Source: Eledone cirrhosa
Taxonomy: Eukaryota
Assembly (NCBI GenBank): GCA_964016885.1
Contig: OZ024749.1
Coordinates: 8,308,001 to 8,372,000 of the forward strand
Direction of reading: 5' to 3'
DNA length: 64,000 nucleotides
Shown here: positions 7,205 to 59,095 of the stretch, in pieces
Layout of the letters: each line of letters begins with the position of its first letter
Numbering within the stretch: the stretch's first letter is position 1
Notes under the pieces: model-generated
Database searches by the model: none
The model's input: the letters and a program-made list of their open reading frames with translations, nothing else
Told to the model about the DNA's origin: nothing
Translations under genes and position numbers: made by a program

Positions 7205-8045
7205 TAAATGTTTCTAGTTTTAGCACAAGGCCAGCAATTATCCAGTATATGGCTCAGTGGTTAGAGCATTGGCCTTGCAATCGAAAGGTTGTGAGTTCAA
7301 TTCTCAGACCGGGCGATGTGTTGTTTCCTTGAGCAAGACACTTTATTTCACGTTGCTCCAGTTTACTCAGCTGTAGAAATGAGATGATAGGGACTGGGAT
7401 CCCTCTCATTCCACTGCAAAGTGGTCGTGGAGGTGCCACGGCAAAAAAAGCACCCAGCACTCACTGTAAATGAGGTTGGTGTTAGGAAGGGGATCCAGCT
7501 GTAGAAATCAAGCCAGAATCAGTTCCCGTCCCACCCTTGCAAGCAGGGAATAGCGGACGTAAAATGAAATGATGATGATGATGATTACTGGTACTTTATT
7601 TTATCGACCCCGTAAGGATGAAAAGCAAAGTTAACCTCGACGGGATTTGAACTCAGATCGTAAAGGGACGTAACTATGCTGGAAAGCATGGCGTCCAACC
7701 CTCTAACGATGCTGCCAATTCGCCGTCCTACAACAATAATAATAATGATTTCTAGTATAGACACAAAGCCAGCAATTTGTGGGAGGGAGAAGCCAATTAT
7801 ATTGACCCCAGTACATTACTGATACTTTATTTTATCGATTCTGTAAGCATTGAAGGCAAAGTTAACCTAGCAGGTTTGAACTCAACCAACAACAATAATA
7901 CTAATGGTTTTTAATTTAGACATAAGGCCAACAATTTTAAGGACGGAGAAAGTCAATTAAATCGACCCCAGTGCATTACTGGTACTTTATTTTATCGACC
8001 CCCGTGAGGATGAAAGACAAAACCAGCCCCGACGAGATTTGAAAA
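7205..8045 (-). mobile_element. Cluster of three S1 SINE copies or fragments (7205-7246 plus 7586-7728; 7745-7885; 7905-8045)
   Basis: Repeated tactggtactttattttatcgacccc...ggatgaaa..caaag motif separated by (aat/aac)n tails. Confidence 0.8.
7247..7585 (+). mobile_element. tRNA-derived CORE-type SINE S2 nested inside an S1 SINE
   Basis: A and B boxes, CORE-like segment and (gat)n tail. It interrupts an S1 copy (gcacaaggccagcaattatccagtat | attactggtactttatt). Confidence 0.85.
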
Positions 8046-9958: not shown

Positions 9959-10029
<71 letters not shown>

Positions 10030-10098
10030 TAGAATAAAAAATGCAAATGCAAAAGATATTGTTGACAATTAGTCTTTTACCTTAGATTTATTTAAATG

Positions 10099-10136
10099 TT
10101 CTTAATTTTCGAGATAATATCTCTTCTTCGGAGGGA
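10099..10136 (-). ncRNA. Minimal hammerhead-like motif in the PLE pseudo-LTR (variant core CCGAAGA); second copy at 13123-13160
   Basis: Reverse complement reads CCT-CCGAAGA-AGAGA tatta TCTC-GAAA-AT-TA-AG(G/A). Stem I is short. Confidence 0.6.
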
Positions 10137-10479
10137 AGTAAAGCGGTTAAACAGTGTTCTAAATAGCTTGCCAAGTCATGCTGACAGGAAATGGTATAGA
10201 GTATCTGTTCTATCTCTAATGTCAAAGAGTTAAGGTTAGGTGGATAAAGAGTAGTCTCCCTTTAAAAGGGTTTTTTTGTTGTACATGTCTGTTTAAGTGT
10301 GTGGGAGAATGCGTGAATGTGTAAGTATGTGTGTGTGTGTGTGAGAAGATGTCTATACGTAAATGTGGGGGATAGATGTTCTCTCGTGTTAGAACTCGTC
10401 TTTGTGTGTGTATGTGTGTGTGTGAGAGAGAATAAGTGGAGGTGTAAGCGTGTGTGTGTGGAAGGGGTGTAAGTATGGG

Positions 10480-13092
10480 GCTAGATGCTCTATCAAGTTA
10501 TAAATTGGGTGTTGAGTTCTAGTATATTATTGATTGGTGGTTGTGTTTTGTCTATAATTAGTGCTTCCTTAATTCTAAGATTGCCGAGGTTTCTTTCCTT
10601 AGTTTCTATCCGAATTGTTATGGTTTTGTCGGTGTTTTTGCATTTCACTAGGTGTTTCTTAAATGAGGAAGCGTTACTATTGAGGTGTTCTTTTATTCTT
10701 ATGTGGAGTGGTCTTGTGGTGCTACCTACGTAGACGTTGCTGCATTTGTCGCACTCTAGTCTGTATACGACGTAAGCCTGGTGGCATAGGTCTGTGTCGT
10801 TGATGGGGCAGTTGGCTAGCCTGCAGCGGTGTCATGTCTGGTGGAGTGTTTTTTGGTTAGCTGTCCGCGTAGAGAAGGTCCTGAGTGGGCCAGTTGGATA
10901 TCTAGTCCCTCTCGTCTGATAGCTCTGCGGATGGCCGTTGTTGTTTCGTCACTGAAGTGTGCAAGCTTCAGGAAGCAAGTGTTAGTGCCTCGGGTGTGCT
11001 GTCCTCTGTTCTTTCTGGCACGGTTTGTGGTGGATGTCGTGTATCCGTTCAGTTTGAGTACTTCCAGGAAATGTGTGGTGTGTGTGTCTCAGTCTCTAGC
11101 ATCGGTGCATTTGTTCCGGATACGTGTTAGTTCGTTCCTTGTGTATCCGAACTTAGCGCCGGCTGGGAGGGCCGATCTGAAATGTACGAACAGGTCCCTG
11201 CTGGCGGCTTTTTTATAGAAGCAGGTGTGGATGTTGCCTTCCTCTGTTACCCTGAGTTGAAAGTCCAGTAGGGATAGTGATCCGCGGTCATCGGGGTGTT
11301 CCATGTTGAACTTTATACTGGCGTCCATGCTGGAGAATGTTGTGTATATTTTATCCGCCTCCTCACGGGATGATGTAAGGATGAGTATGTCATCTACATA
11401 TCGGGTGAAGAAGGCATGGGAATGGCAGGTGTTGAGGGCTCGGCATTCTAGCTGGTTCATATAGGTGATGGCCAGCAGGCCCGATAGGCTGGATCCCATG
11501 GGTAATCCTGTTGTTTGTCTGTATGTGTGGTGGTGGAAGGTGAAGTACGTGTTGTTCACTGTGAAGGACAAAAGCTGGTGTATGTCCGTCGGATGGAGGC
11601 CGAAGCAGTGGATGTCCTCCGCGACCACGCAGTCCGTCAATAAATCGACAGCTGGATGAGCGGGGACTGTAGTGTAGAGGGGGACAACGTCGAGGCTAAA
11701 GGCGTATCTATTTAGTTTAAGTTGTTCTGGCTGGAGTTGGTGTAGTCTACGTATGACTTCGTCGGAGCTACTGACATGCCCGGGAAAGGTGGAGAGTAGA
11801 GGCTTGAGGAGCCAGGAGATTTTGTATAGGGGTCCTATGCTAGAGACGATGGGTCTTATTTGGTTCTTAGTACTATTCTTGTGGGTCTTCATGAGGTGGT
11901 AGAAAGTGGGCAGTCTGCTATTTCTAGTGGTGTAGTTGAGCTTAACTTTATTTGGGAGTTGTCTTCTACTACAGATGTCGAACCAGATGGAGTTGGTCTG
12001 TTTTTCGATCTGGGCTGCATTCATGTCCGGGATCTCTGTATATAGTTCATTGTCGCTTAGGTGTTCAAAGGCTAGGTTGTTGTATGTGGCTTGAGAGATG
12101 ACGCAAAACTCTTTACCTTTGTCGGATGGTAAGTATATAAGTTCCCTATTCTGTAGGTTCTTCAGGGCGAGTTGTTGTGTCCTGGAGAGGTTTGAGGCTA
12201 TCTTCTGTTTCCATAAGATGTTAAATACGGAATGTTTTAACCTCGAGAGTTTTTCTTCAAGCTCGCGGTGGACAGAGTGGGCGATCCAATTGGTATATCG
12301 GGAATCTGGGTTTGATATCCATTTTAGTTGGTAGGCAGCCCGACAGAAATTCGTTTCTATGTCGAGCCATAATATGTCGTCCAGTCTCTGTTTCAATATG
12401 AACTTGGGACCCAGGCTGGGGAGGTCTAATTCCTCTCGGGAGAGGGATCCTGTCAAGTCTGTGACGAGGTGTTTTGCGTCAGGTGTGAAGTTTGTCGTGG
12501 CGCCGCTAGGTTCGGTGTTGGTACCGTCTTGTTCGCCTCTGTTGGTGCTTAGAGTTGGGATGTTGTTAAGACGGTTAGCCATGCTGAGTTTGAGAAATGT
12601 TTGCGTTAGGCGTATTTTCTCGTAGTCTCGGCGATGGTGGTATGACCTGTCTATAGCGGCGGAGATAACTCTGGAGACAGATTCTGGGGTTTCAGCGAGT
12701 TGTGGTACAAGGCTGGAAATAGTCCGTATGTGTTGTTGTAGCGTGCGCTGTAGGTTTTGTATGAGTTTTCTTAGGCAGAAATTGTGTATGTAGCTAAGTG
12801 ATCGTTTGAGGCCTGGTGATTTGAAGCATGTTGGTAGGTGCAAGTTTTTGATAGTTTTGGGCATGATGTTGTTATTCAGGCATCGTTTTAGGAAGTTTAT
12901 TTGGCAGCCGGCTTTGGCGCGCTTTTCAGATAGCTGGAAGAGTTTCTTTACAGTTGTGAACTGGGCCTGGCTCAAGCGTAAAGAAAGGAGAACGTTGTGT
13001 AATGAGGTATAAACGTTTGAATTTGTAAAGCCAAAACAATGCAGGTATGTACATAGAATAAAAAATGCAAATGCAAAAGATATTGTTGACAA
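10480..13092 (-). pseudogene. PLE RT + GIY-YIG ORF with one in-frame TGA (11089-11091) and one frameshift (near 10830)
   Basis: Motifs LPSDKG, KTHK...RPIVS, FSLDV..LYT, QTTGLPMGS, RYVDD and LLDF. Past the TGA the frame stays open (FLEVLKLNGY), then shifts to C..NCP..CHQAYVVYRLECDKC.NVYVGSTTR.LHIRIKEH. Confidence 0.9.
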
Positions 13093-13729
13093 TTAGTCTT
13101 TTACCTTAGATTTATTTAAATGTCCTTAATTTTCGAGATAATATCTCTTCTTCGGAGGGAAGTAAAGCGGTTAAACAGTGTTCTAAATAGCTTGCCAAGT
13201 AATGCTGACAGGAAATGGTATAGAGTATCTGTTCTATCTCTAATGTCAAAGAGTTAAGGTTAGGTGGATAAAGAGTAGTCTCCCTTTAAAAGGTTGTTTT
13301 TTTTGTACATGTCTGTTTAAGTGTGTGGGAGAATGCGTGAATGTGTAAGTATGTGTATGTGTGTGTGTGAGAGAGCATAAGTGGGTGTGGGAGGGGGTGT
13401 AAGTATGGGGCTAGATGATGTATCAAGTTTAAATTGGGTGTTGAGTTCTAGTCTATTATTGATTGGTGGTTGTGTTTTGTCTATAATTAGTGCTTCCTTA
13501 ATTCTAAGATTGCCGAGGTTTCTTTCCTTAGTTTCTATCCGAATTGTTATGGTTTTGTCGGTGTTTTTGCATTTCACTGGGTGTTTCTTAAATGAGGAAG
13601 CGTTACTATTGAGGTGTTCTTTTATTCTTATGTGGAGTGGTCTGGTGGTGCTACCTACGTAGACGTTGCTGAATTTGTCGCACTCTAGTCTATATACGAC
13701 GTAAAGCTGGGGGCATAGGTCTGTGTCGT

Positions 13730-13830
<101 letters not shown>

Positions 13831-13939: not shown

Positions 13940-14580
13940 TAAATATATGCAAAAGTTCTATTTAAATATTTTTATAACTGATATAAAGCACTCGACAAGT
14001 ATTTGGAGTAAATATACGATATTAACAAATGGAAACTATATTTATAAAACCATATTTATTTCATTATACATATTTCAAGGATACCATGTTAAATTATGGT
14101 GTGCCTTCATCAGACAAAATACAATATATACCAGATTTATAAATAAACATTGACGTACCCTTTCAAAATGCAACCGTTACTTTTGGAAGACATCAGGATA
14201 GATTTATAAAACTGGTATACACGTATATTGTATTTTGTCTGATGAAGGCATACCATAATTTAACATGGTATCCTTGAAATATGTATAATTAAATAAATAT
14301 GGTTTTATAAATATAGTTTCCATTTGTTAATATCGTATATAAATATATATATATATATATACGATATTAACAAATGGAAACTATATTTATAAAACCATAT
14401 CTATTTTATTATACATATTTCAAGGATACCATGTTAAATTATGGTATGCTTTCATCAGACAAAATACAATATATACCAGTTTTATAAATAAATATTGACA
14501 TACCCTTTCAAAAAGCAACCGTTACTTTTGGAAGACATCAGGGATAGTGGATTTGTTTATCTTAGTAAGTCGTTGTGTTG
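13940..14580. mobile_element. PLE family A pseudo-LTR remnant with three arms (-,+,-), each with an HHR
   Basis: 14012-14135 is inverted relative to 14201-14340, and a third copy lies at 14360-14580. Homologous to the 3' end of the PLE at 56689. Confidence 0.85.
14231..14295 (+). ncRNA. Type I hammerhead motif, family A
   Basis: TATTTTGT-CTGATGA-AGGCATACCAT...ATGGTATCCTT-GAAA-TATGTA-TA-ATTAAATA. Confidence 0.75.
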
Positions 14581-15292: not shown

Positions 15293-15369
<77 letters not shown>

Positions 15370-15373
<4 letters not shown>

Positions 15374-15560
15374 CAAAGGAATTGTGGTAAGGAACCAGAT
15401 TGACCATAACGCACTAGAGTACTTAATACTTAGGGTAGTAGAGTGGAAAATAGGAAAAAGTATGACCCCGACGGCAGAGCTCAAGCCGTTTCGACGGCTA
15501 TGTCCAGAAATACCCGTCGAAACGACTTGAGCTCTGCCGTCGAGGTCATACTTTTTCCTA
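15370..15560. mobile_element. PLE family B fold-back remnant in (TA)n
   Basis: Inverted arms taggaaaaagtatgaccccgacggcagagctcaagccgtttcgacgg and its reverse complement. Matches the 3' end of the PLE at 36461. Confidence 0.85.
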
Positions 15561-15886
15561 TATATATATATATATATAAAGTATCCATTATGAAGTGAAG
15601 CGTTTATATAAACATTTTCTCAACATTCTTTGAGATTATTACTGAAGAAGGATAAGTTGATATGTGGTAGGGTTGAGGAGGTGAAGGGTGAGGAGAAAGA
15701 GGAGGCGGCAGCGCAAGAAGAAGAAGAAGAAGAAGTTTGCAGCATGTGCGTTGTTTGCATTAAATATTTGAATTAAATATTAATGTAAATAAATATGGAT
15801 ATAACTTTGTTTGTCTTCTTTATCTTTCAACTGTGTGTGTGTGTATATATATATGTGTGTGTGTGTTGTGTGTGGATATATATATA

Positions 15887-16134: not shown

Positions 16135-16335
16135 TCAGGTTCATATTCAGTGGTGACAGTCAAGTTTGCAATTTCTTGACTGTCACCACTGAATCTGAAC
16201 ATGAAGATTGCGAAACCATGAAATTACTTGTTCAATTAACATTTAACATTCTACCATAATAGTTCATTATAATATCATAATTTTAACGGATTGTAAATAA
16301 AACGAGTAAATCAGACAAAGTTGGAATTCCTTTTA

Positions 16336-16340
<5 letters not shown>
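16135..16340 (+). mobile_element. PLE family C pseudo-LTR remnant with a 5' hairpin and a degenerate HHR
   Basis: Matches 35075-35192; inverted arms ttcagtggtgacagtcaag / cttgactgtcaccactgaa. Confidence 0.85.
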
Positions 16341-16372
<32 letters not shown>

Positions 16373-16622
16373 GAGAGGTATAGAGATTGTTTTAGCAAGA
16401 AGCTAACGGCATTCTATAACATATATGCGACTATAACGTCAAGATGGGAAAAGTAGTTAACGAAAGATTTAGGAAAAATAACTCAAACTCATCTCAAAAG
16501 AGAATCAGGATATAAATTCATCCACAGAATTTAGTAAAATCCAGGGAAAAATCTATAGACCTTTAACTCATGATAAAATAAAGTTTGAAACACTTATCCT
16601 TCAATTTGGAATAACATCAAAT

Positions 16623-16704
16623 GCTCTGTATAGTCTTAAAAGACTATTTCATGAAAACTTTCAGTGGAGATGGTCATGGTTGGAATTTCATTCATCAGCA
16701 GAGC
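16623..16704 (-). ncRNA. Complete type I hammerhead ribozyme, family J copy 1
   Basis: Reverse complement reads GCTCTG-CTGATGA-ATGAAA...TTTCAT-GAAA-TAGTCT ttta AGACTA-TA-CAGAGC. All three stems are at least 6 bp; AUA cleavage triplet. Confidence 0.88.
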
Positions 16705-17251
16705 TCAACAGAAACCAGGGCTCTCACAGTAGTATAATCCGAAAAAGGGAATTCTAAAACTGGCTAGTTCGCCTTCATGTGTATTTATGAAAAAGCACAT
16801 GAGGAAAAAACGGGGCTAGTGATGTCAGGATGGAAGTGAATGTTTATTTACAAGAAATAACAGTCAAATACATTCTGAAAAAAACTCTACAAAGGAGTTC
16901 AGCAAAATAGCAATAATTATCACAGTTTTTATGAAAAAAACCGGGATTAGTCACAGATAGTTTAAGCACTCTAGGAAAAGAATCCGAGTATAAATATAAA
17001 TGAGAGGTATAGAGATTGTTTTAGCAAGAAGCTAACGGCATTCTATAACATATATGCGACTATAACGTCAAGATGGGAAAAGTAGTTAACGAAAGATTTA
17101 GGAAAAATAACTCAAACTCATCTCAAAAGAGAATCAGGATATAAATTCATCCACAGAATTTAGTAAAATCCAGGAAAAAATCTATAGACCTTTAACTCAT
17201 GATAAAATAAAGTTTGAAACACTTATCCTTCAATTTGGAATAACATCAAAT

Positions 17252-17332
17252 GCTCTGTATAGTCTTAAAAGACTATTTCATGAAAACTTTTAGTGGGGAT
17301 GGTCACGGTTGGATTTCATTCATCAGCAGAAC
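17252..17332 (-). ncRNA. Complete type I hammerhead ribozyme, family J copy 2
   Basis: Same fold. Stem I is GTTCTG/CAGAGC (U-G wobble) and the other differences fall in the stem II loop. Confidence 0.88.
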
Positions 17333-17380
17333 TCAACAGAAGCCAGGGCTCTCACAGTAGTATAAATATTTATATATATA

Positions 17381-17421
<41 letters not shown>

Positions 17422-17448
17422 TTATATATATATATATTTATATATATA

Positions 17449-17543
<95 letters not shown>

Positions 17544-17574
17544 TTATATATATATATATTTATATATATATATT

Positions 17575-17605
<31 letters not shown>

Positions 17606-17606
<1 letters not shown>

Positions 17607-17797
17607 ACGAATGAGGTGTGGTAAGGAACTAGATTGACCATAACGCACCAGAGTACTCAATACTTAAAGTAGTAGAGTGGGTAATAGGAAAAAGTTTAAC
17701 CCCGACGGCAGTGCTCAAGCCGTTTCAACGGCTATTTCTGGAGTCCAGAAATAGCCGTCGAAACGGCTAGAGCTCTGCCGTCGGGGTTAAACTTTTT

Positions 17798-17801
<4 letters not shown>
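17606..17801. mobile_element. PLE family B fold-back remnant
   Basis: Hairpin centred at tctggagtccaga (about 17742), with (TA)n flanks. Confidence 0.85.
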
Positions 17802-19830: not shown

Positions 19831-19867
<37 letters not shown>

Positions 19868-19873
<6 letters not shown>

Positions 19874-20300
19874 ATATTAATAAATGGAAACTATATTTCT
19901 AAAACCATAATTATTTTATTATATATATTTCAAGGGCGACAAAGGTAAATTATGGTGCGCTTTCATCAGATAAAATACAGATTTGTTTTATAAATAAATA
20001 TGGATATACCCGGAAAAAAGACAACCTCAACGGTTGAAATTTGCTGGATAGCGAATTTCAACCGTTGAGGTTTTCTTTTTTCCGGGTATATCCATATTTA
20101 TTTATAAAACAAATCTGTATTTTATCTGATGAAAGCGCACCATAATTTACCTTTGTCGCCCTTGAAATATATATAATAAAATAATTATGGTTTTATTAAT
20201 ATATTGTATATTTACTCCACTTAACTGTTGAGTGCTTTATATCAGTTATAAAAATGTTTAAGCTTGTTGAATCCCAACAAATTAAATATAACCTCTGCAT
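19868..20300. mobile_element. PLE family A fold-back (about 170-bp near-perfect inverted arms, apex near 20050); HHR at 20118-20183 (+) and its antisense copy
   Basis: TATTTTAT-CTGATGA...GAAA-TATATA-TA-ATAAAATA gives a perfect 8-bp stem I. Confidence 0.85.
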
Positions 20301-32142: not shown

Positions 32143-35100
32143 GCAAGGAACGGGGAAAAAACCGTAGAATAACCAGATCACTTTCAAGATCTCAACGGAG
32201 ATTACCCACAAGAAACTGGGCGAAAAAACTATCTAAACCTGAAAGCAAACCTAGGTCATTTTCCCAGATTGTTACAAATAATGCTAACAGGAAGAAAAAT
32301 AATATACAAAATACCCAAAATAGGACAAAATACATAACGAAACTAAGTATAATATCACACCAACAGGAATATAAATCCTGAACAGAAAAAAATCCATTTT
32401 TTAACGTCAGGACAACAAAAACCGGAAAAAGAAAAACTCCAGGAGGAAACATACCCAAAACAACTGAACAGGTAGATCCTAAAATGATTAATTCATCCAA
32501 AAGAGATCTTGACAATGATGAAATGCAAATTCTGTCAAAAGGACTGAAATTCACCCGCCAGTCAACCGCCAAGTCAACCGCCAAGAACTGAAGGAGGATA
32601 CCCAAGAATTCTGTCGTAAATAACGACTTGTAGAATTCTTCGCTGATAAAAGTAATGAGTGATGAATCACTAGTAAAGAATAAATAAAATTACACTCCGC
32701 CAAAAGGAAGAAATATCTATCTCGATCAATACATTGACATCCTGTCTAAATTTCCTCTTAGACGTAATACTAATGTTAGGCCAAACATTAACAAATCGGA
32801 AATGTCTGCACTTAAACGTATACAAAATGATAAAACAATAATAATTAAACAAGCAGATAAAGGGGGTGTAATTGTTATAATGGATGCTGAATACTACAAA
32901 GATTTGGTTGAGGAACAACTGAAAGACACAGCATTCTACCATGAAATACTGTCAAATATAGACCACAACATCATGAAGAAGATCAACAACCTGGCTTCAA
33001 AATACCACAACTCACTTACTGATAAGGAAAGAGACTACATCACCAATTTTGAGCCCAAACCCAACAACCTGTGTGGTCTACCGAAAGTCAAAAGAAATAC
33101 AACTGGCAGTAAAAGAACAAAAAAGTGAGTACATTAAATTACTACACCGAAAATACTTAAAACTTAGAACTATTATAGCTGGTCCAACATGCCCTACCCA
33201 CCGTCTAAGCAATTTTATTGACATTATTTTGAAACCACTATGTATTCACATACCCAGTTTCATCCGGGATGATATCGACTTCCTGTCCCATCTTCCCAAA
33301 ACCACGGAAACGAATTCACTTCTACTTAGTTTTGATGTGGTAAGCCTTTAGACCAACATTACACATCATTTAGGAATAAAGGCGGTTAAATACTGGGTGG
33401 AAAAACATAGAGAAGTGAATCACACCAGATTCACAGTGCCATTTATATTAGACGCAGTCAGACTTATTCTGGAAAACAACACATTCTTCTTCAATGGAAA
33501 GAATTACCTCCAAATTAGAGGCACAGCGATGTGAACGAAGTTTGCTCCCGTTTACGCGAACTCTGTAATGGGATACTTAGAACAACTACTCTACCAAGAA
33601 ATAGAGGGAAAATATAGTACTGACTTTAGAAAGTACATTGAAAAATCTTGGAAGAGATACCTTGTCGACTGTTTCATCATCTGGACAGAATCTCTAAATA
33701 CTCTGGATGAGTTCAATATCCTCTTGAATAACCTACACCCATCTCTCCAATTTACAACAAAGATGAGTAGTACCAAATTACCATTCCTAGATATAATGGT
33801 AATCAAAAACGACACCACCATTACCACGGATATATACTATAAACACACAGACACTCATCAATATCTGAATTTTAAGTCGTGCCATCCCCCTCATACAAAA
33901 CGCAACATCCCATACTGCCTAGCCAGAAGAATTTGTACCATTGTAGAAGATACAAATACCAATAACAAACGCCTAACAGAACTGAGGTAATTTTTGCTCA
34001 AACAAAAATACCCATCTCTACTTATAGAAAATGGCATACAACGGGCTATAAAAATACCTATACAATAACTTAGGACAACCCAAGGGAGAAGAAACCAAGA
34101 ACTGGTCATACCATTTATAATGACACACAACCCATGTCACCAGAATATTTTCAACACTGCCAAAACAAACCTACCGATCATTGCTCAAAGTAAGGAATTA
34201 AAAGGTTTAATCACAGACCGAGCTTTGACTCGTAGTAAAAGACAGCCGAAAAATTTGAAGCAATTACTAACAAAGACAAAGTTTGACCTTAACAACAAAG
34301 ACCAATCATTCACTGTATCTAAATGCAATGATAGTCGATGTGGCACATGTCAATCCATACAGACTCGTCAATATATGAACACAAAAACTGGAAAAATATT
34401 CCCAAATGCAAATATGAACTGCAAAAGCAGAAATCTAATTTACTGCATTAAATTCCCGGATTGTGAAGAATTATATGTCGGTCAAACTGGAAATGCACTA
34501 TCGAAACGTGCACGGGTGCACCGACAGCAAATCAGAGATCCAAAAGTCCGTCAGATACCCCTGAGTAACCATCTAGCTACATGTGGTCAGGGAATATTTA
34601 TAATATTTCCATGCTACAAACTACACAGCCCAAGTGAAATCAAGAGAAAAATTAAAGAAAAGAATTTTATTGATAAATTCCAACCCAAGCTAAATGAACA
34701 ATAATGATGCTTAGGGGTATTACTTCTACTATGACTATGACTACGGCCATGTCGACTACCCACACTAAAAACAACAACAATAATAATAATAAAAGTGATG
34801 TTGATAGTGATGATTACTGAAGATTTTTTTATAAAAACCCTAGAAAATGCTATTTTCATCATTTCTAAAAATAGCAAAACAATTAATGCTTTGGATAGGC
34901 TCAAATAGAAGTCGTTAGACATGCTCAACCAACCGTGACGCCTAAACGAATCAGCTTTAGTAATCTAGAAAAACTTCACACCGATTGGTCAAAATACAGT
35001 TTGCAAAACTTAGCATTCTGTAGCCCCTTTTTACTGTATATAAGGCACACATATTAGCCATCTCATTACAGTTGAAAATTGCAAACTTGACTGTCACCAC

Positions 35101-36459: not shown

Positions 36460-38776
36460 AACGAAGGAAATGTGGTGAGGAACCAGGTGGACCATAACGC
36501 ACCAAAGTACTCCATACTTAGGGTAGTAGAGTGGGTAATAGGAACTAGTAGGACCCCGACAGCTGAGCTCAAGCCGTTTAGACGGCTAATTCTGGACTAA
36601 ATAAACATTTTTATCCTGGTATTTGAATAGCCGAGCTTCTCAGGGGATAATTCCATATATGGTAAATGTGATTGTCACAAGGATTGGTCAAAAGTTTGTT
36701 GTTGAAACATAATAATTCTATCATGGCAATTTGTGGAGAGAAGGGGTAGCAGAACCTGCCAGTAGAAGAAAGAGGGAGAGGGGGTGGAGGAAACCCAGTT
36801 GTGGTGCGTTGATAGTGCCAACTACAGCTGGGCATGAGGTCAAAGAAGATACTAGGGGGGGGGTCGAAACAATAAGTAAAACAATATGGGGTAAATATAT
36901 AGAAAAATACCAAGAGTGTTAAAAAACAATCAAATGTAAAAAAAAAACAATTTCTGGTTACTATAACCTAAGGACAGCTATCAAGTCTCTCACTGGTACT
37001 GCTAGACTAAAGAAAGGTTTACTAGGTGAGACGGAATTATAATGAGACCCATTTAAGAGGTATAATTAAACAACCGAATATATCTTACGGTGACGGGTCA
37101 ACAAGTGGGGGGCCAAAATACTAAAGAAACTACCACGAAATAATAATTCAGAGTCCCGAGACCAGTACGAAATAAAGGTTTCTACCCCAGGCACAAGGCC
37201 AGCAACCACCCAGTGCAAAAAAAATAAACTAATACGAAATAATAATTCAGAATCCCGAGAAAGAAACTAATACTATCTCTAAGGGTGCCGCCACGATACA
37301 AAAATTCTAGTGCAGACTACATAAATGCTCGTACGAAGTATATGTAAAATTTGATACGGAAAATTAATTCAGACCCCCCCCCCCCCAAAAAAAAACACTG
37401 ATATACGAGAAATTAAAGCAACGATACCACTAAGAAATATAGAAAGCACGGAAAAGGAGCAGCCATCGGATAAGAAGGCAAGTATCCGGGATCTAACACA
37501 TCTGCTATAAAAAGCGGCGTCGGCCAAATCTATCATAGAATAGGGGAAGGGGTGGGGGTACTGAGGCTACAAAGGACCGAGGGGCTGCCTCGGGTGGGCG
37601 AGAAAGTAAAAGGACGACAACAAAGAAAGAGGACTGGGGTGGAAGGACTAGGGAGGGTTGAGGGGACGAAGGAAATATAGAGGAAGTGATAAAAAGCTAT
37701 AAAAGAAGATCTTAGGTCTACCTTTGCAAGCAGGGGTTACCCATTACAAAATCGGTAAGTGGGGTGTTATACCCCTAGTCTACCCCCCCCCCCCGGGTCA
37801 TTATGGGGTTTGAGGGCGAGGTAAGTCCTATGCGATCTGTGTTTACATGCAGTTACCAGTTCATCTTTCTTGTTTAGGAGTTGGTCCGTCGAGAACAGCA
37901 TTTGTAAAGTTTCCTCCGAGCATAAATTGCACGGACGGCGTCCTCCCGTGTAAGAGTTGGCTCTGGACAGTAAGCTCCAAGTGAGATCATAGGTAATATT
38001 GTTATCCTTGAGGTCCCATATGTGGCCCGAAAGTGTAGTGGCGTGACGCCGGGCCGGGTTTCGGAAGGTATGTCTGTGTTGGTATAACCGGGTCTTGAAG
38101 TCACATGCGGTTAATCCTATATAAGCTTTGTTGGAAGTGTCCGTCCTCACGTTGCACTGGTAGATCACATTACGATCTCTGCATCTGTTGTCGAGGGGGA
38201 AAATGGATCCATCAGGACAGTTGCACCTCCTGGTCGGCTCTCCACTGCTATTTAGGTTATTTCTTCCATAGGGGTTGAGTATTTTATTGTTAGAGGAGAC
38301 GATATTTTGTGCAAAGTTTGGTGTGGCGCTGTAGGAGAGTTTGATGGTATTTTTTGTTAATTATGCTGTGGTAGCGGTGTTGTAGTGGGAAGTGTTTTTC
38401 AATGAGCCTAAAGAAGATTTTCCCGATAGGAGCTGTCACCTCGGCGTTGTGGGGAGGGTTGAACCATGTTACGTTGCGTGAACGGCGGTGTCGCCTGCTG
38501 GTTCCGCTAATGGAGGCTGGACAGTAGGATATTTCCTCCCGGAAACCACTCCGCTTGAGGGCCTGGTTGTAATAAGGCGCATGTTCCTCGAATATCTGCT
38601 CATTAGCTGACAAACGGGATATGCGGAGGGAGATGTTTTTAACCAGGTTATTGGTGATGTTCCTAGGATGGCAGATTCTGTTACCCCTTCCCTCCACAAA
38701 TTGCCATGATAGAATTCTTATGTCTCAACAACAAACTTTTGTTCCACAATGCTTCAAGCAAACTTCAATAGTCACA
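36460..38776 (-). mobile_element. Penelope-like element family B, 5'-truncated (RT thumb + GIY-YIG + 3' UTR/pseudo-LTR), with an inverted fragment at its 5' end
   Basis: RISRLS..EQIF...YNQALKRSG, VTWFNPP, CNC, IYQCNV...YIGLT..DFKTRLYQH..TF, CNLCSEE. 38668-38776 is an inverted copy of 36667-36762. Confidence 0.9.
36554..36648 (-). ncRNA. Degenerate hammerhead, family B (long stem II, GUC site)
   Basis: Reverse complement reads CCC-CTGAGAA...CGGCTA..loop..TAGCCG-TC-TAAA-CGGC ttgagctca GCTG-TC-GGGG. Other family B copies have GAAA at the TAAA position. Confidence 0.55.
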
Positions 38777-42315: not shown

Positions 42316-42500
42316 AACGAAGGAAATGTGGTAAGGAACCAGGTGGACCATAACGCACCAAAGTACTCAATACTTGAGGTAGTAGAGTGGGTAATAGGAA
42401 CGAGTAGGACCCCGACAGCTGAGCTCAAGCCGTTTCGACGGCTAATTCTGGAGCCGTCGAAACGGCTTGAGCTCAGCTGTCGGGGTCTTACTGGTTCCTA
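42316..42500. mobile_element. PLE family B fold-back remnant
   Basis: Arms ccccgacagctgagctcaagccgtttcgacggct / agccgtcgaaacggcttgagctcagctgtcgggg in (TA)n. Confidence 0.88.
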
Positions 42501-46920: not shown

Positions 46921-48189
46921 TAAAAAAGGGTTTTTTTGACGATAACACCCCAGTGAGAAAATTTGCTCCGAACGAATTGCATGTGTCCGAAGGAACCTGC
47001 AGCCGTAGAATCAGCCAGATTCATACTGTGATCATGTCTCGAGCTACCTCCCCGCAAAACAATTGTGACACCTCTAGGGGTTGTATCGATGAACATTACA
47101 CCTGCCCCTTGTATAGGAGCAAATTTTGGAATAGAATAGAAAGAACTAGGAATAAGGCTAATAGAATAAACTCATGATATGATAGCAATAAATACCAGAG
47201 TGTAATGTTCATCGATACAACCCCTAGAGGTGAATTAGCTTACACATTTAGAAGGGCCCTAGATAAACATAAACTCAATATTAAGATAGTAGAAAGACCA
47301 GGTACCTCCATAAAAACACTTATTAGCAAGACATACCATTTTCAAAGACCTCCCCCCCCCCCTGTATAGATAAGAAATGTATAACCTGTAAATTAAGCCC
47401 CCATATTAACTGTAAAACTAGAAATGTAGTATATAGCATAAGATGTACTGAAAGACAATGTAGAGATAAAAATATAGTGTACATAGGTGAGACAGCTCGT
47501 AGTGTAGGGGAACGGATAAATGAACACTGGCAAGACCTTCAAGATAGTAAAGAATCATCTGTACTCTACCAACATGCTAAAATAGAACATAAGGGTAAAT
47601 TAGAGAACATAGAAATAAAAATAGAATCTACACACAGAAAAGACGCAATGTTTAGACAAATCACAGAGGCAATAAACATAAAAGAATTACAACCAAAATT
47701 AAATAGGAAAGATGAGTGGAACAGCAACATCACAACTTACAATTAAGGACAAAATGAAAACACACACGCACATAGAACAAACAAACAACCAGTAACATGT
47801 AAATAAACGAATATAAACACACACAGACACCCGGATGTGGCGCATGCGCAGACTGAACACACAACACACACACAGAAACAAGATGGCGTAGGACAGAACA
47901 AAGGAGAGGCACAAAAACAAAGAAAATAATCCCCAGTCACTGAAGAGGTCACAGAATGTGTGACGAAAGAACTTTGACAATATATAAACAACCATCTGGT
48001 TGTGGAACCAACCAACCAACCGGAAATTTATAAATTCCTAAATTTATAAATGTATTATAATAAATTGAAGTGAAAGCAACTGGTGCGTGTGTTTCTTATT
48101 GGCAACATGACCCTCCCAAAGTATAACAATATCGGTTTCAATACACGTTTTCAGATAAAGAATCTTGCTAAACAAATTCAGAAACGAAA
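46917..48189 (+). mobile_element. Penelope-like element family E, 5'-truncated (linker + GIY-YIG + pseudo-LTR), with a short 5' inversion
   Basis: VMFIDTTPRGEL, INCKTRNVVYSIRC...C...YIGETARSVGERINEH...RQITEA.NI...PKLNRK; 47068-47101 is inverted relative to 47199-47232. Confidence 0.9.
47936..47978 (+). ncRNA. Minimal type I hammerhead, family E
   Basis: GTCA-CTGAAGA-GGTCACA gaatg TGTGAC-GAAA-GAAC-TT-TGAC. Confidence 0.8.
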
Positions 48190-56690: not shown

Positions 56691-59095
56691 AAAGTTATAT
56701 TTAAATTGTTGGGTTAACAACGAGTAAATATTTATAACTGATATAAAAGCACTCAACAAGTATTTGGAGAATATTTATGATATTAAATAAATGGAAACTA
56801 TATTTATAAAACCATATTTATTTCGTTATATATATTTCAGGGATATCATATTAACAATATGTTATGCCGTCTTCAGACAAAATACAATATAAACAGTCTT
56901 ATAAATAAATAGATACGACATACCTTTCAATCACCTTGCCTTTGGGAGGTTGATTTGGTAGTAAAAAATATTGTGGACAGTTGTAAAAAGAAAGAGAAAA
57001 AGAGAGAAAGAGAGAGAAACGAAGAAAAAGAAGAAATGCATGTGACTAAATAGAGGGATATAGAAAGATAGATAAAGAGAAGAACTTCATGTAAAGAAAC
57101 AGAGATAAATATATATAGAGAGAGGAAAAAAGAAAGAGATAGATAGAGATAGATAGAGAAATTAGGAAGTTGAGTATCGGTTGATACATTTATTTATTTA
57201 TTTATTTAGCTCTAGTATTAATGTAAAGAGAGATGTATGTAGTTAAGAGAGAAAATAGCCGTTATATAGAGAGAAAAAAGAGAAAATGAAAAAGAGAAAA
57301 TGAAACACAACCAGACATAAACGATGCAGAATTTAAAACCGCTATGTTTTATCCGTAGAAAATATTAGTTCGTATAAAACAGGCATTATAATGTAAGTAC
57401 CAGTATTCATGAATGAGACATGTATCTATAATGTGTGAAAAGTAATGATCTTATGTCTAGTTTTTAAAAATTCATATGTTTATATCATAATTATAAACAA
57501 ACTCTCAATTCACACGAAAACATTCTCATTGTGCTATAAAAATTCAAGTATACATATATGTGTGTATATATACACATATATATATAGAGTCTATATTAAT
57601 TTTAACAATACTATTCTTGTCTTTATTCTACCTGATTGTCGATCAAGCAGAAAAAAGAACAGATTTCAATATATTAATAAAAATAAAAATAAAAATAAAA
57701 ATAAAAATAAAAATAAAAATAAAAATATCAGAAACAAGAAAATAAATAAATAAATAAATAAACAGAAAACTAAGACATTTAATATTAAAAATAAAAAATA
57801 AAAAATATTACAAAATATTACAAAATATTAAAAAATAATACAAATAAAACACAGAGATCAGCCTTTCAAAGTTAATTGACAATATATTGCCAAGATCATC
57901 ATAAGCATAAGAGTCGAAACAGATAAAACAAAAATTGTTTACCAAATCCTGTCTAGCAGAAATCATTCCAAAAGTTTAGGATACCCATTTGGTCTACATA
58001 TGTTCTTATATATAATATAGAAGTTAATCTAGTTTAAAATTTAATTCGATATATTTGGAGCATCAGCTTTTAGGGTAGTTTAATTATTCATGAAGAATGT
58101 TTTAATAAAAGAATGTTTTAATAAAAAGAAGAAATCGAAAGATTTATCGGCTAGTTTCATAAATAATTACAAATCAAATCAAAACAAACATAATTACATT
58201 TTAAATTTAAATTTATATTTAAACGTTGAGTTCAATCTATGTCTGCAGCAACTGAATAAATTTGTCCGTAGATTAAGGGAATTTTTAGATTTTAGTATAA
58301 AGAATATCTCCTCCGCACAGAGATCACATGTCTCAGAGGATGAATTAAAAGGAATCCCCCTTGAAACTATTTTCCAAGTCGTCGAATATCTAACGTTATC
58401 ATGCCTAAGTTGCCAGAGTACGCCTGATAGTGCTGTTGAAGATTTTTTGGATGGATCTGTGAAAGAATTCTTGTGGTTGTTATAGCGAAGTTTAAATTCC
58501 GTCGATGTAGAACCAACGTAGTTAAAAGAATTAACGTCCGTTTTAACATTACAGTTGTATATTATATTTTTAACTAAGCAGTTGTTATTTAACGGACATT
58601 TAGATCTATCTCTACAGTTACATTTGTTAACTTGGATATTATTTATGCTATTATCGCTAGGTTTTAAGTTCCTGTTATTTATTCTATTAATATTATGCGC
58701 TAAATTTTTGGTGGATGAGTAGGTTAGTTTTATAGTATGTCTATTGAAAATTGAGTGATACCTATGTGTTCTAGGGAAGCGATTATCGAGAGTTTTAAAA
58801 AATAGTTTAGCAATGTGGGTTTTAATGTTTAGTGAGAAAGGGGGGGCAAACCATATTATATTCCTAGTTCTATTTCTTTTATGGCTTTTGGAATTATTGT
58901 AATGCTTTCTATTATAGTTGTTAAGGTTGTGGCCATAATTAAAATAGTTGTTATTTTGTTTAATTTGTTTATCATTATCTATGTACATAATTTTATCACT
59001 ATATCCTGCTCTAGCTAACGCTTCATTGTAATAATAGGCTTTTTCGTCGAAAATCTTTTTATTAGATGAGATTCTAGAGATACGTTATATCTGTT
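56689..59095 (-). mobile_element. Penelope-like element family A, 5'-truncated (linker + GIY-YIG ORF 58194-58988, long 3' UTR, HHR at about 56818-56885)
   Basis: RNIIWFAPPFS, KCNCRD..KCPL..NC, IIYNCNV...YVGST..EFKLRYNNH.NSF, CDLCAEE. The 3' terminus matches the family A arms. Confidence 0.92.

Follow-up and report, generated by a model that had tools for sequence, protein, structure and literature searches.

A non-LTR retrozyme family in Eledone cirrhosa with a fixed 3' end in (TA)n and a bulged hairpin pointing to Hydra-clade Penelope-like elements

Background

Metazoan non-LTR retrozymes are ORF-less, low-GC tandem units with one type I hammerhead ribozyme (HHR) per unit. They are dispersed as n-mers, occasionally show long target duplications and co-occur with Penelope-like elements (PLEs), all of which applies to the unit described here (Cervera and de la Pena 2020, PMC7229834; Li et al. 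2026, 10.64898/2026.07.22.740005). Its size lies within the range of 51-972 bp given by Li et al. and exceeds the 170-400 nt circles shown experimentally for metazoan retrozymes in these two papers. Their available text describes neither a single internal start, a TA target nor a clade-specific cis signal, and leaves the partner simply as 'PLEs'. According to the accessible part of Li et al., eight of nine Xenopus retrozymes did not cleave in vitro.

Hydra-clade PLEs are marked by the motifs DKT, RWR and CxCx5C (Craig et al. 2021, PMC8557442, available text). They resemble the unit in inserting into (TA)n, in having an HHR upstream of a fixed 3' end, in 5' truncation and in carrying a bulged hairpin near the end. 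In contrast to them, the unit is ORF-less, has long rather than minimal HHR stems, ends 260 nt instead of about 47 nt from the cut and uses one end site instead of two. Non-autonomous Chlamys elements (such as MRC1) are, like the unit, non-coding PLE parasites with multicopy head-to-tail insertions but, unlike it, they share the 3' sequence of their partner; most Chlamys have no canonical HHR (same source).

In Poseidon of Anolis, element PAc (Frangieh et al. 2024, PMC11167929, available text), reverse transcription is likewise initiated within the RNA, at a point downstream of the HHR cut, on a DNA nick that is AT-rich. PAc is coding and has two start sites without target homology, whereas the unit is non-coding and its single start site shows 8/9 microhomology to (TA)n. 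When this one PLE was tested in vitro, HHR cleavage proved dispensable and uncut RNA was the main template.

Results and discussion

The locus and its family

The window is the whole 64,000-nt stretch of DNA that was analysed; the genome holding it is 3.0 Gb and TA-rich. A preliminary description, made from the letters alone, had proposed a candidate circular-RNA retrozyme consisting of an ORF-less direct repeat of period 629. The repeat is present as a 1.6-mer, one full unit followed by a truncated one, with (TA)n at both outer ends (Table 1). We number the unit from q1 (16369), the RNA reading from high to low q. The two units differ by 6 substitutions and one 1-nt indel in 369 nt. Four differences lie in loop II, one turns a C-G pair of stem I into U-G and two (16546 and 16714) are outside the ribozyme. 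The five inside the HHR leave it unbroken. The left neighbour, at 16135-16343, is a Neptune-type PLE represented by its 3' end and carrying a decayed HHR; the retrozyme is inserted in its TA tail.

Table 1. Coordinates of the features at the locus (positions in the window)
Feature	Position	Strand	Remarks
(TA)n target, left flank	16339..16368		
Full unit, 629 nt	16369..16997	-	on the RNA strand, the insertion's 3' part; fixed 3' end at 16369, joined to (TA)n
Type I hammerhead, copy 1	16623..16704	-	stem I 16704-16699/16628-16623, core 16698-16692, GAAA 16650-16647, cut after 16629
Predicted cut-to-cut monomer, 629 nt (putative circle)	16629..17257	-	inferred product
Conserved helix 17062-17055 with 16955-16948, closing domain around start site and hairpin	16948..17062	-	spans the unit junction
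Bulged hairpin ACUC-GGA-loop-UCC-UA-GAGU-GCU, predicted RT recognition tag	16965..16989	-	common to Hydra-clade PLE ends
AU-rich internal start site, predicted single-stranded	16989..17000 (boundary 16998|16997)	-	8 of 9 bases match the (TA)n primer
Second unit, 5'-truncated, 368 nt	16998..17365	-	runs out into (TA)n
Type I hammerhead, copy 2	17252..17332	-	cut after 17258
TA-rich microsatellite, right flank	17361..17606		

Exact patterns representative of subfamily A, which give lower bounds, identified at least 1,044 ends in which (TA)n is joined to q1 and at least 349 unit-to-unit junctions genome-wide (control 0 in each case). A search with the unit returned 1,956 candidates, and full-unit matches among the best 40 of these are 97-100% identical. 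Subfamilies B (387 motif matches) and C are 86% and 72% identical to A, respectively. Both are about 630 nt long, tandem and TA-embedded, mostly start at the same end as A, and are older sister subfamilies of it. One B array (L174 and L175, G000:C2:378112000-378130900) contains at least 29 units.

No ATG-started frame longer than 38 aa occurs on either strand of the unit, in agreement with the description of it as ORF-less. On the non-HHR strand, a stop-to-stop frame of 91 aa matches nothing in Pfam, and subfamily C does not retain it. The unit has no PLE protein match, and the ORF typical of a Hydra-clade PLE, comprising an RT (DKT, RWK) and, at the C terminus, a GIY-YIG with CxCx5C linker, is absent. 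Consecutive tandem units (two or more) each carry a complete type I HHR, and the copies are dispersed and numerous with no LTR-type internal region. Dispersed multicopy n-mers, a conserved and covarying HHR and the lack of an ORF bear out the proposed assignment: the family is a real and recently active non-LTR retrozyme, of a kind already known. Flanks of three further loci (L209, L211 and L212) contain other HHR families with a long stem III beside PLE copies, possibly additional retrozymes.

Hammerhead ribozymes

Both minus-strand type I HHRs of the preliminary description were confirmed, with CUGAUGA at 16698 and 17326, GAAA, an AUA cut site and stems I/II/III of 6/6/7-8 bp. Stem III is indeed longer than in the other HHRs here, since the four other motifs in the window have only a palindromic stem III of 3-4 bp. 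The suggested covariance-model check was negative: Rfam (Hammerhead_1) gave no hammerhead match at the gathering score or at E<=10, and the search returned only chance snoRNA and miRNA matches here. Because Rfam does not detect the HHR, its identification rests on motif, stems and covariation.

Eleven of the 12 core columns are conserved at 96-100% and the remaining one (N7) at 92%; the core is intact in 161/167 units and a type I hammerhead is kept in all three subfamilies. Across 26 aligned units, 94% of cells are paired and four pairs, in stems I and II, show two-sided changes, which trace to a few subfamily splits and hence to few independent events. Rare changes within subfamily A affect the core at near the background rate (6/2004 versus 371/94233). 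Taken over the subfamilies, the HHR structure appears to be under selection.

The minimum free energy structure of copy 2 forms stem II while that of isolated copy 1 does not. In the consensus fold a competing hairpin is favoured at the expense of stem II, and the base of stem II is mismatched in 11 of the 26 aligned units. The loop II stretch CCACUGAAA (window 16655-16669) shows almost no variation in any subfamily and is able to pair with stem II on its 3' strand; it is a possible off-switch that might keep a circle uncut. Loop II also has a 30-nt match (80%, E 0.12) to a Neptune-type hairpin. Folded as a circle, the putative 629-nt monomer has a z score of -3.6 (25 shuffles).

Insertion ends

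To survey the ends, 91 3' ends and 91 5' ends were sampled from distinct subfamily A insertions. The 3' ends fall at q1-3 in 89/91 cases and are fused to (TA)n in 88/91; subsets retrieved with internal queries give the same fixed end (18/18, 13/13 and 17/17). This end lies 260 nt past the ribozyme cut. The 5' ends are scattered over q20-629; 81/91 pass straight into TA and none falls at q255-266. Permuted ends, which had been predicted for the n-mers, are ruled out by the fixed 3' end: only the 5' ends vary. About a quarter of insertions (a hand estimate from the pattern matches listed for C1) are longer than one unit, and arrays reach 29.5 nearly identical units. Target duplications are mostly masked by TA, informative repeats (10-68 nt) being present in 8/96 insertions. 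In its fixed 3' end, its 5' truncation and its sharing of a partner's target preference, the family behaves as a non-autonomous PLE derivative. The end anatomy is the one left by target-primed reverse transcription that begins at one fixed internal position, 260 nt beyond the cut.

These data also bear on whether the unit is only one part, the pseudo-LTR or the 3' UTR, of a longer PLE with coding capacity, or else a satellite that is inert. An origin of retrozymes from pLTRs is reported (10.64898/2026.07.22.740005, available part) and a rare coding copy could be missed, the best 40 of up to 2,841 candidates having been scored. However, the unit junction occurs 349 times rather than being unique to this locus, and 0/91 sampled 5' ends entered further element sequence, most passing directly into TA. 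The length is constant at about 630 nt in three subfamilies and no PLE protein match was obtained for the unit. Nor are dispersed insertions with a fixed end the behaviour of a satellite. Both ideas are thus already largely refuted, and we regard them as very improbable.

Circle or uncut multimer

Genome-wide, eight insertions end at the cut (q260) with TA next to it, compared with about 8.5 expected under random truncation. Since a cut linear monomer would stop at q260 and there is no excess at this position, cut linear RNA is not the main template. Without a pile-up at the cut, the template must therefore continue through it, either as a ligated circle or as an uncut multimer. The 1.6-mer, which had been read as the product of reverse transcription around a circle, does not by itself show one, because ordinary PLEs also produce partial tandems.

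An uncut, multimeric read-through RNA would serve equally well to explain the fixed end and the absent pile-up, given the same internal priming by a Hydra enzyme, an HHR that is weak or has another role, and arrays renewed by unequal crossing-over. Uncut RNA is dominant in PMC11167929 and HHR-less non-autonomous Chlamys also occur in head-to-tail arrays (PMC8557442; available text of both). Local duplications are visible in the arrays: in three period-2 arrays (L063, L176 and L180) duplication at the DNA level is evident, and such duplication can also homogenise arrays. We nevertheless consider this explanation unlikely, if the most serious of the alternatives. The HHR core and stems are kept, with compensatory changes, over 28% divergence, and stem III is long and competent in the monomer. 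In addition, each round of read-through would cost at least one unit, and diverged templates appear to have been copied twice in L194 and L066.

Comparison of units within arrays provides counts on both sides. In favour of a circle, adjacent units are concordant at lineage variants in 87 cases and discordant in 19. A private variant common to the units of a single locus occurs in 15/54 loci, and L194 has ten such variants. In L066 one variant is present in 3/3 units, and the 29.5-mer carries the same variant in only two of its units. Against a circle, private variants are unit-specific in 101 cases and shared in 27. As for dimeric circles from a dead HHR as the source of the period-2 arrays, L176 agrees in part, with a core change in units 2 and 4, but its other variants do not alternate, and the cores of L063 and L180 are intact. 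An A-to-I editing footprint among copies was sought and rejected: there is no strand bias (private changes T>C 11, A>G 22). Two runs from other organisms contained matching pieces of 210 and 246 nt at low depth. Given the rest of the explanation, a circle is quite probably the template.

A bulged hairpin and the candidate partner

A bulged hairpin sits 9 nt 3' of the unit's start (the fixed end). It is found in 25/26 aligned units and kept in all three subfamilies. Its pattern (ACUC-stem-UH-GAGUGCU) occurs 84,424 times genome-wide against 6,422 for a reversed control. In the first 30 matches, a TA run follows no more than 80 nt downstream in 27 cases and an HHR lies upstream in 14; one match has a second, 40%-identical Hydra endonuclease upstream. 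Among 84 distinct inner sequences, taken from the studied loci and including variants of the same families, 48 have a stem of at least 3 bp above a 2-nt 3' bulge (0+2 geometry) compared with 4.0 in shuffled sequences, and the bulge is UU, UA or UC in 74.

The same genome contains two intact PLE families that target TA, one Neptune-type and one Hydra-type. [quoted passage not shown] It has two ends, with the hairpin about 9 nt 3' of one of them and upstream of the ORF; both Hydra loci examined (L264 and L265) carry it. Judged by eye, GCUC-stem-UH-GAGCACU lies near the ends of three of six published Hydra consensus sequences, Hydra-2_Amil (coral) and Hydra-1_Ajap and Hydra-2_Ajap (sea cucumber), and the other three, including Hydra-1_Obim, have an imperfect match or none (PMC8557442, available part). 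A second, hairpin-like copy (GCUC..GAGC form) immediately precedes the Hydra ATG at L264:2490-2520, and Hydra-1_Ajap also has two copies before its ORF (same source); this second copy could double as a translational operator.

A partner could not be assigned by sequence similarity: comparison of the unit with six PLE loci and six window regions gave only shuffle-level scores, nothing being clearly above eight shuffles per comparison. Because no extended similarity to any PLE tested was found, the assignment rests on the short motif. We infer that the hairpin may bind the Hydra protein and that the local Hydra family is a candidate partner.

Movement by another TA-targeting element (Neptune-type, Naiad or LINE), with the hairpin as an inherited relic, seems improbable. 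It would fit the lack of long similarity between unit and Hydra family, the preference of Naiads for (TA)n (PMC8557442, available text) and the intact Neptune-type family, which also has fixed ends in (TA)n. Against it, the hairpin is missing from 2/2 Neptune-type loci, is kept in three retrozyme subfamilies and stands as far from the end as its Hydra counterpart does.

Other elements in the window

Hydra-type PLE 3' fragments, inverted and tandem and 70-88% identical to L264, lie at 13960-14560 and 19846-20290. They include minimal HHRs with cut sites at 14065, 14410, 19920 and 20175 and the hairpin at 14009 and 20214. A family of short repeats embedded in TA, which are non-coding and contain an internal inverted repeat (15327-15578, 17607-17800, 36461-36596 and 42317-42500), carries a hairpin variant ending in GAGUACU about 45 nt from its end and no HHR that we could find; it is possibly a ribozyme-free Hydra parasite. 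A partial-tandem PLE between TA runs (10026-13735) has a 667-aa RT frame (11089-13092) and a GIY-YIG (10493-10831), and no candidate passed an HHR scan of it. Further PLE fragments lie at 32688-35100, 37767-38724, 47327-47746 and 58194-59084; two families have many uninterrupted 745- and 775-aa frames genome-wide. The window also contains a LINE-type RT frame of 609 aa (68-2907) and a weak tRNA-like match (7250-7307), likely a SINE head.

Proposed mechanism

On balance we favour, with moderate confidence, a non-LTR retrozyme with a fixed 3' end in (TA)n whose RNA is likely cut to 629-nt monomers and likely circularised, with a Hydra-clade Penelope-like enzyme the likely agent that copies it around the circle. 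The source would be a copy no shorter than about 1.55 units, for example the 1.6-mer; it would be transcribed and cut at both HHRs, and the monomer closed by a host ligase. Only copies of this kind would yield a complete template, because the start site and hairpin are split in copies of one unit or less. The Hydra protein would then bind the bulged hairpin and nick (TA)n; the DNA 3' end would anneal to the AU stretch immediately 5' of the hairpin, and reverse transcription would start 260 nt past the cut. Synthesis would cross the ligated cut and go on round the circle until random fall-off, leaving 0.2 to several units. Local duplication would later enlarge some arrays.

Conclusions

The literature searched did not extend to subscription journals, Repbase reports or bioRxiv supplements. 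Within it, our searches turned up neither a description of the hairpin nor one of an octopus retrozyme, and the available text of PMC13282606 mentions neither ribozyme, retrozyme nor Hydra. What is new within this literature is the use of a single internal start site, the genomic evidence excluding cut linear templates, and the clade-specific hairpin pointing to Hydra PLEs.

More broadly, and with about even confidence, we suggest that Hydra-clade Penelope enzymes choose their RNA by a small, conserved bulged hairpin (RCUC-stem-UH-GAGYRCU) retained from corals to E. cirrhosa. The retrozyme would be a circular RNA parasite reduced to this tag, a primer site that matches TA, and a ribozyme; its thousand insertions would record rolling-circle, target-primed reverse transcription from one start. 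The same tag, on tens of thousands of ends belonging to many other repeat families, would drive a guild of parasites.

The mover of animal retrozymes and the use of circles as templates have been proposed, without demonstration in the accessible text, in PMC7229834, 10.64898/2026.07.22.740005, PMC11167929 and PMC8557442. The present family points to a particular clade, to a cis signal of 25 nt and to the base at which copying would start. Since ORFs of the candidate partner are intact in the same genome, the question is reducible to a single reconstitution experiment. The hairpin can further help to classify many TA-embedded repeats that carry no label, and a PLE enzyme might use it as a minimal cargo tag.
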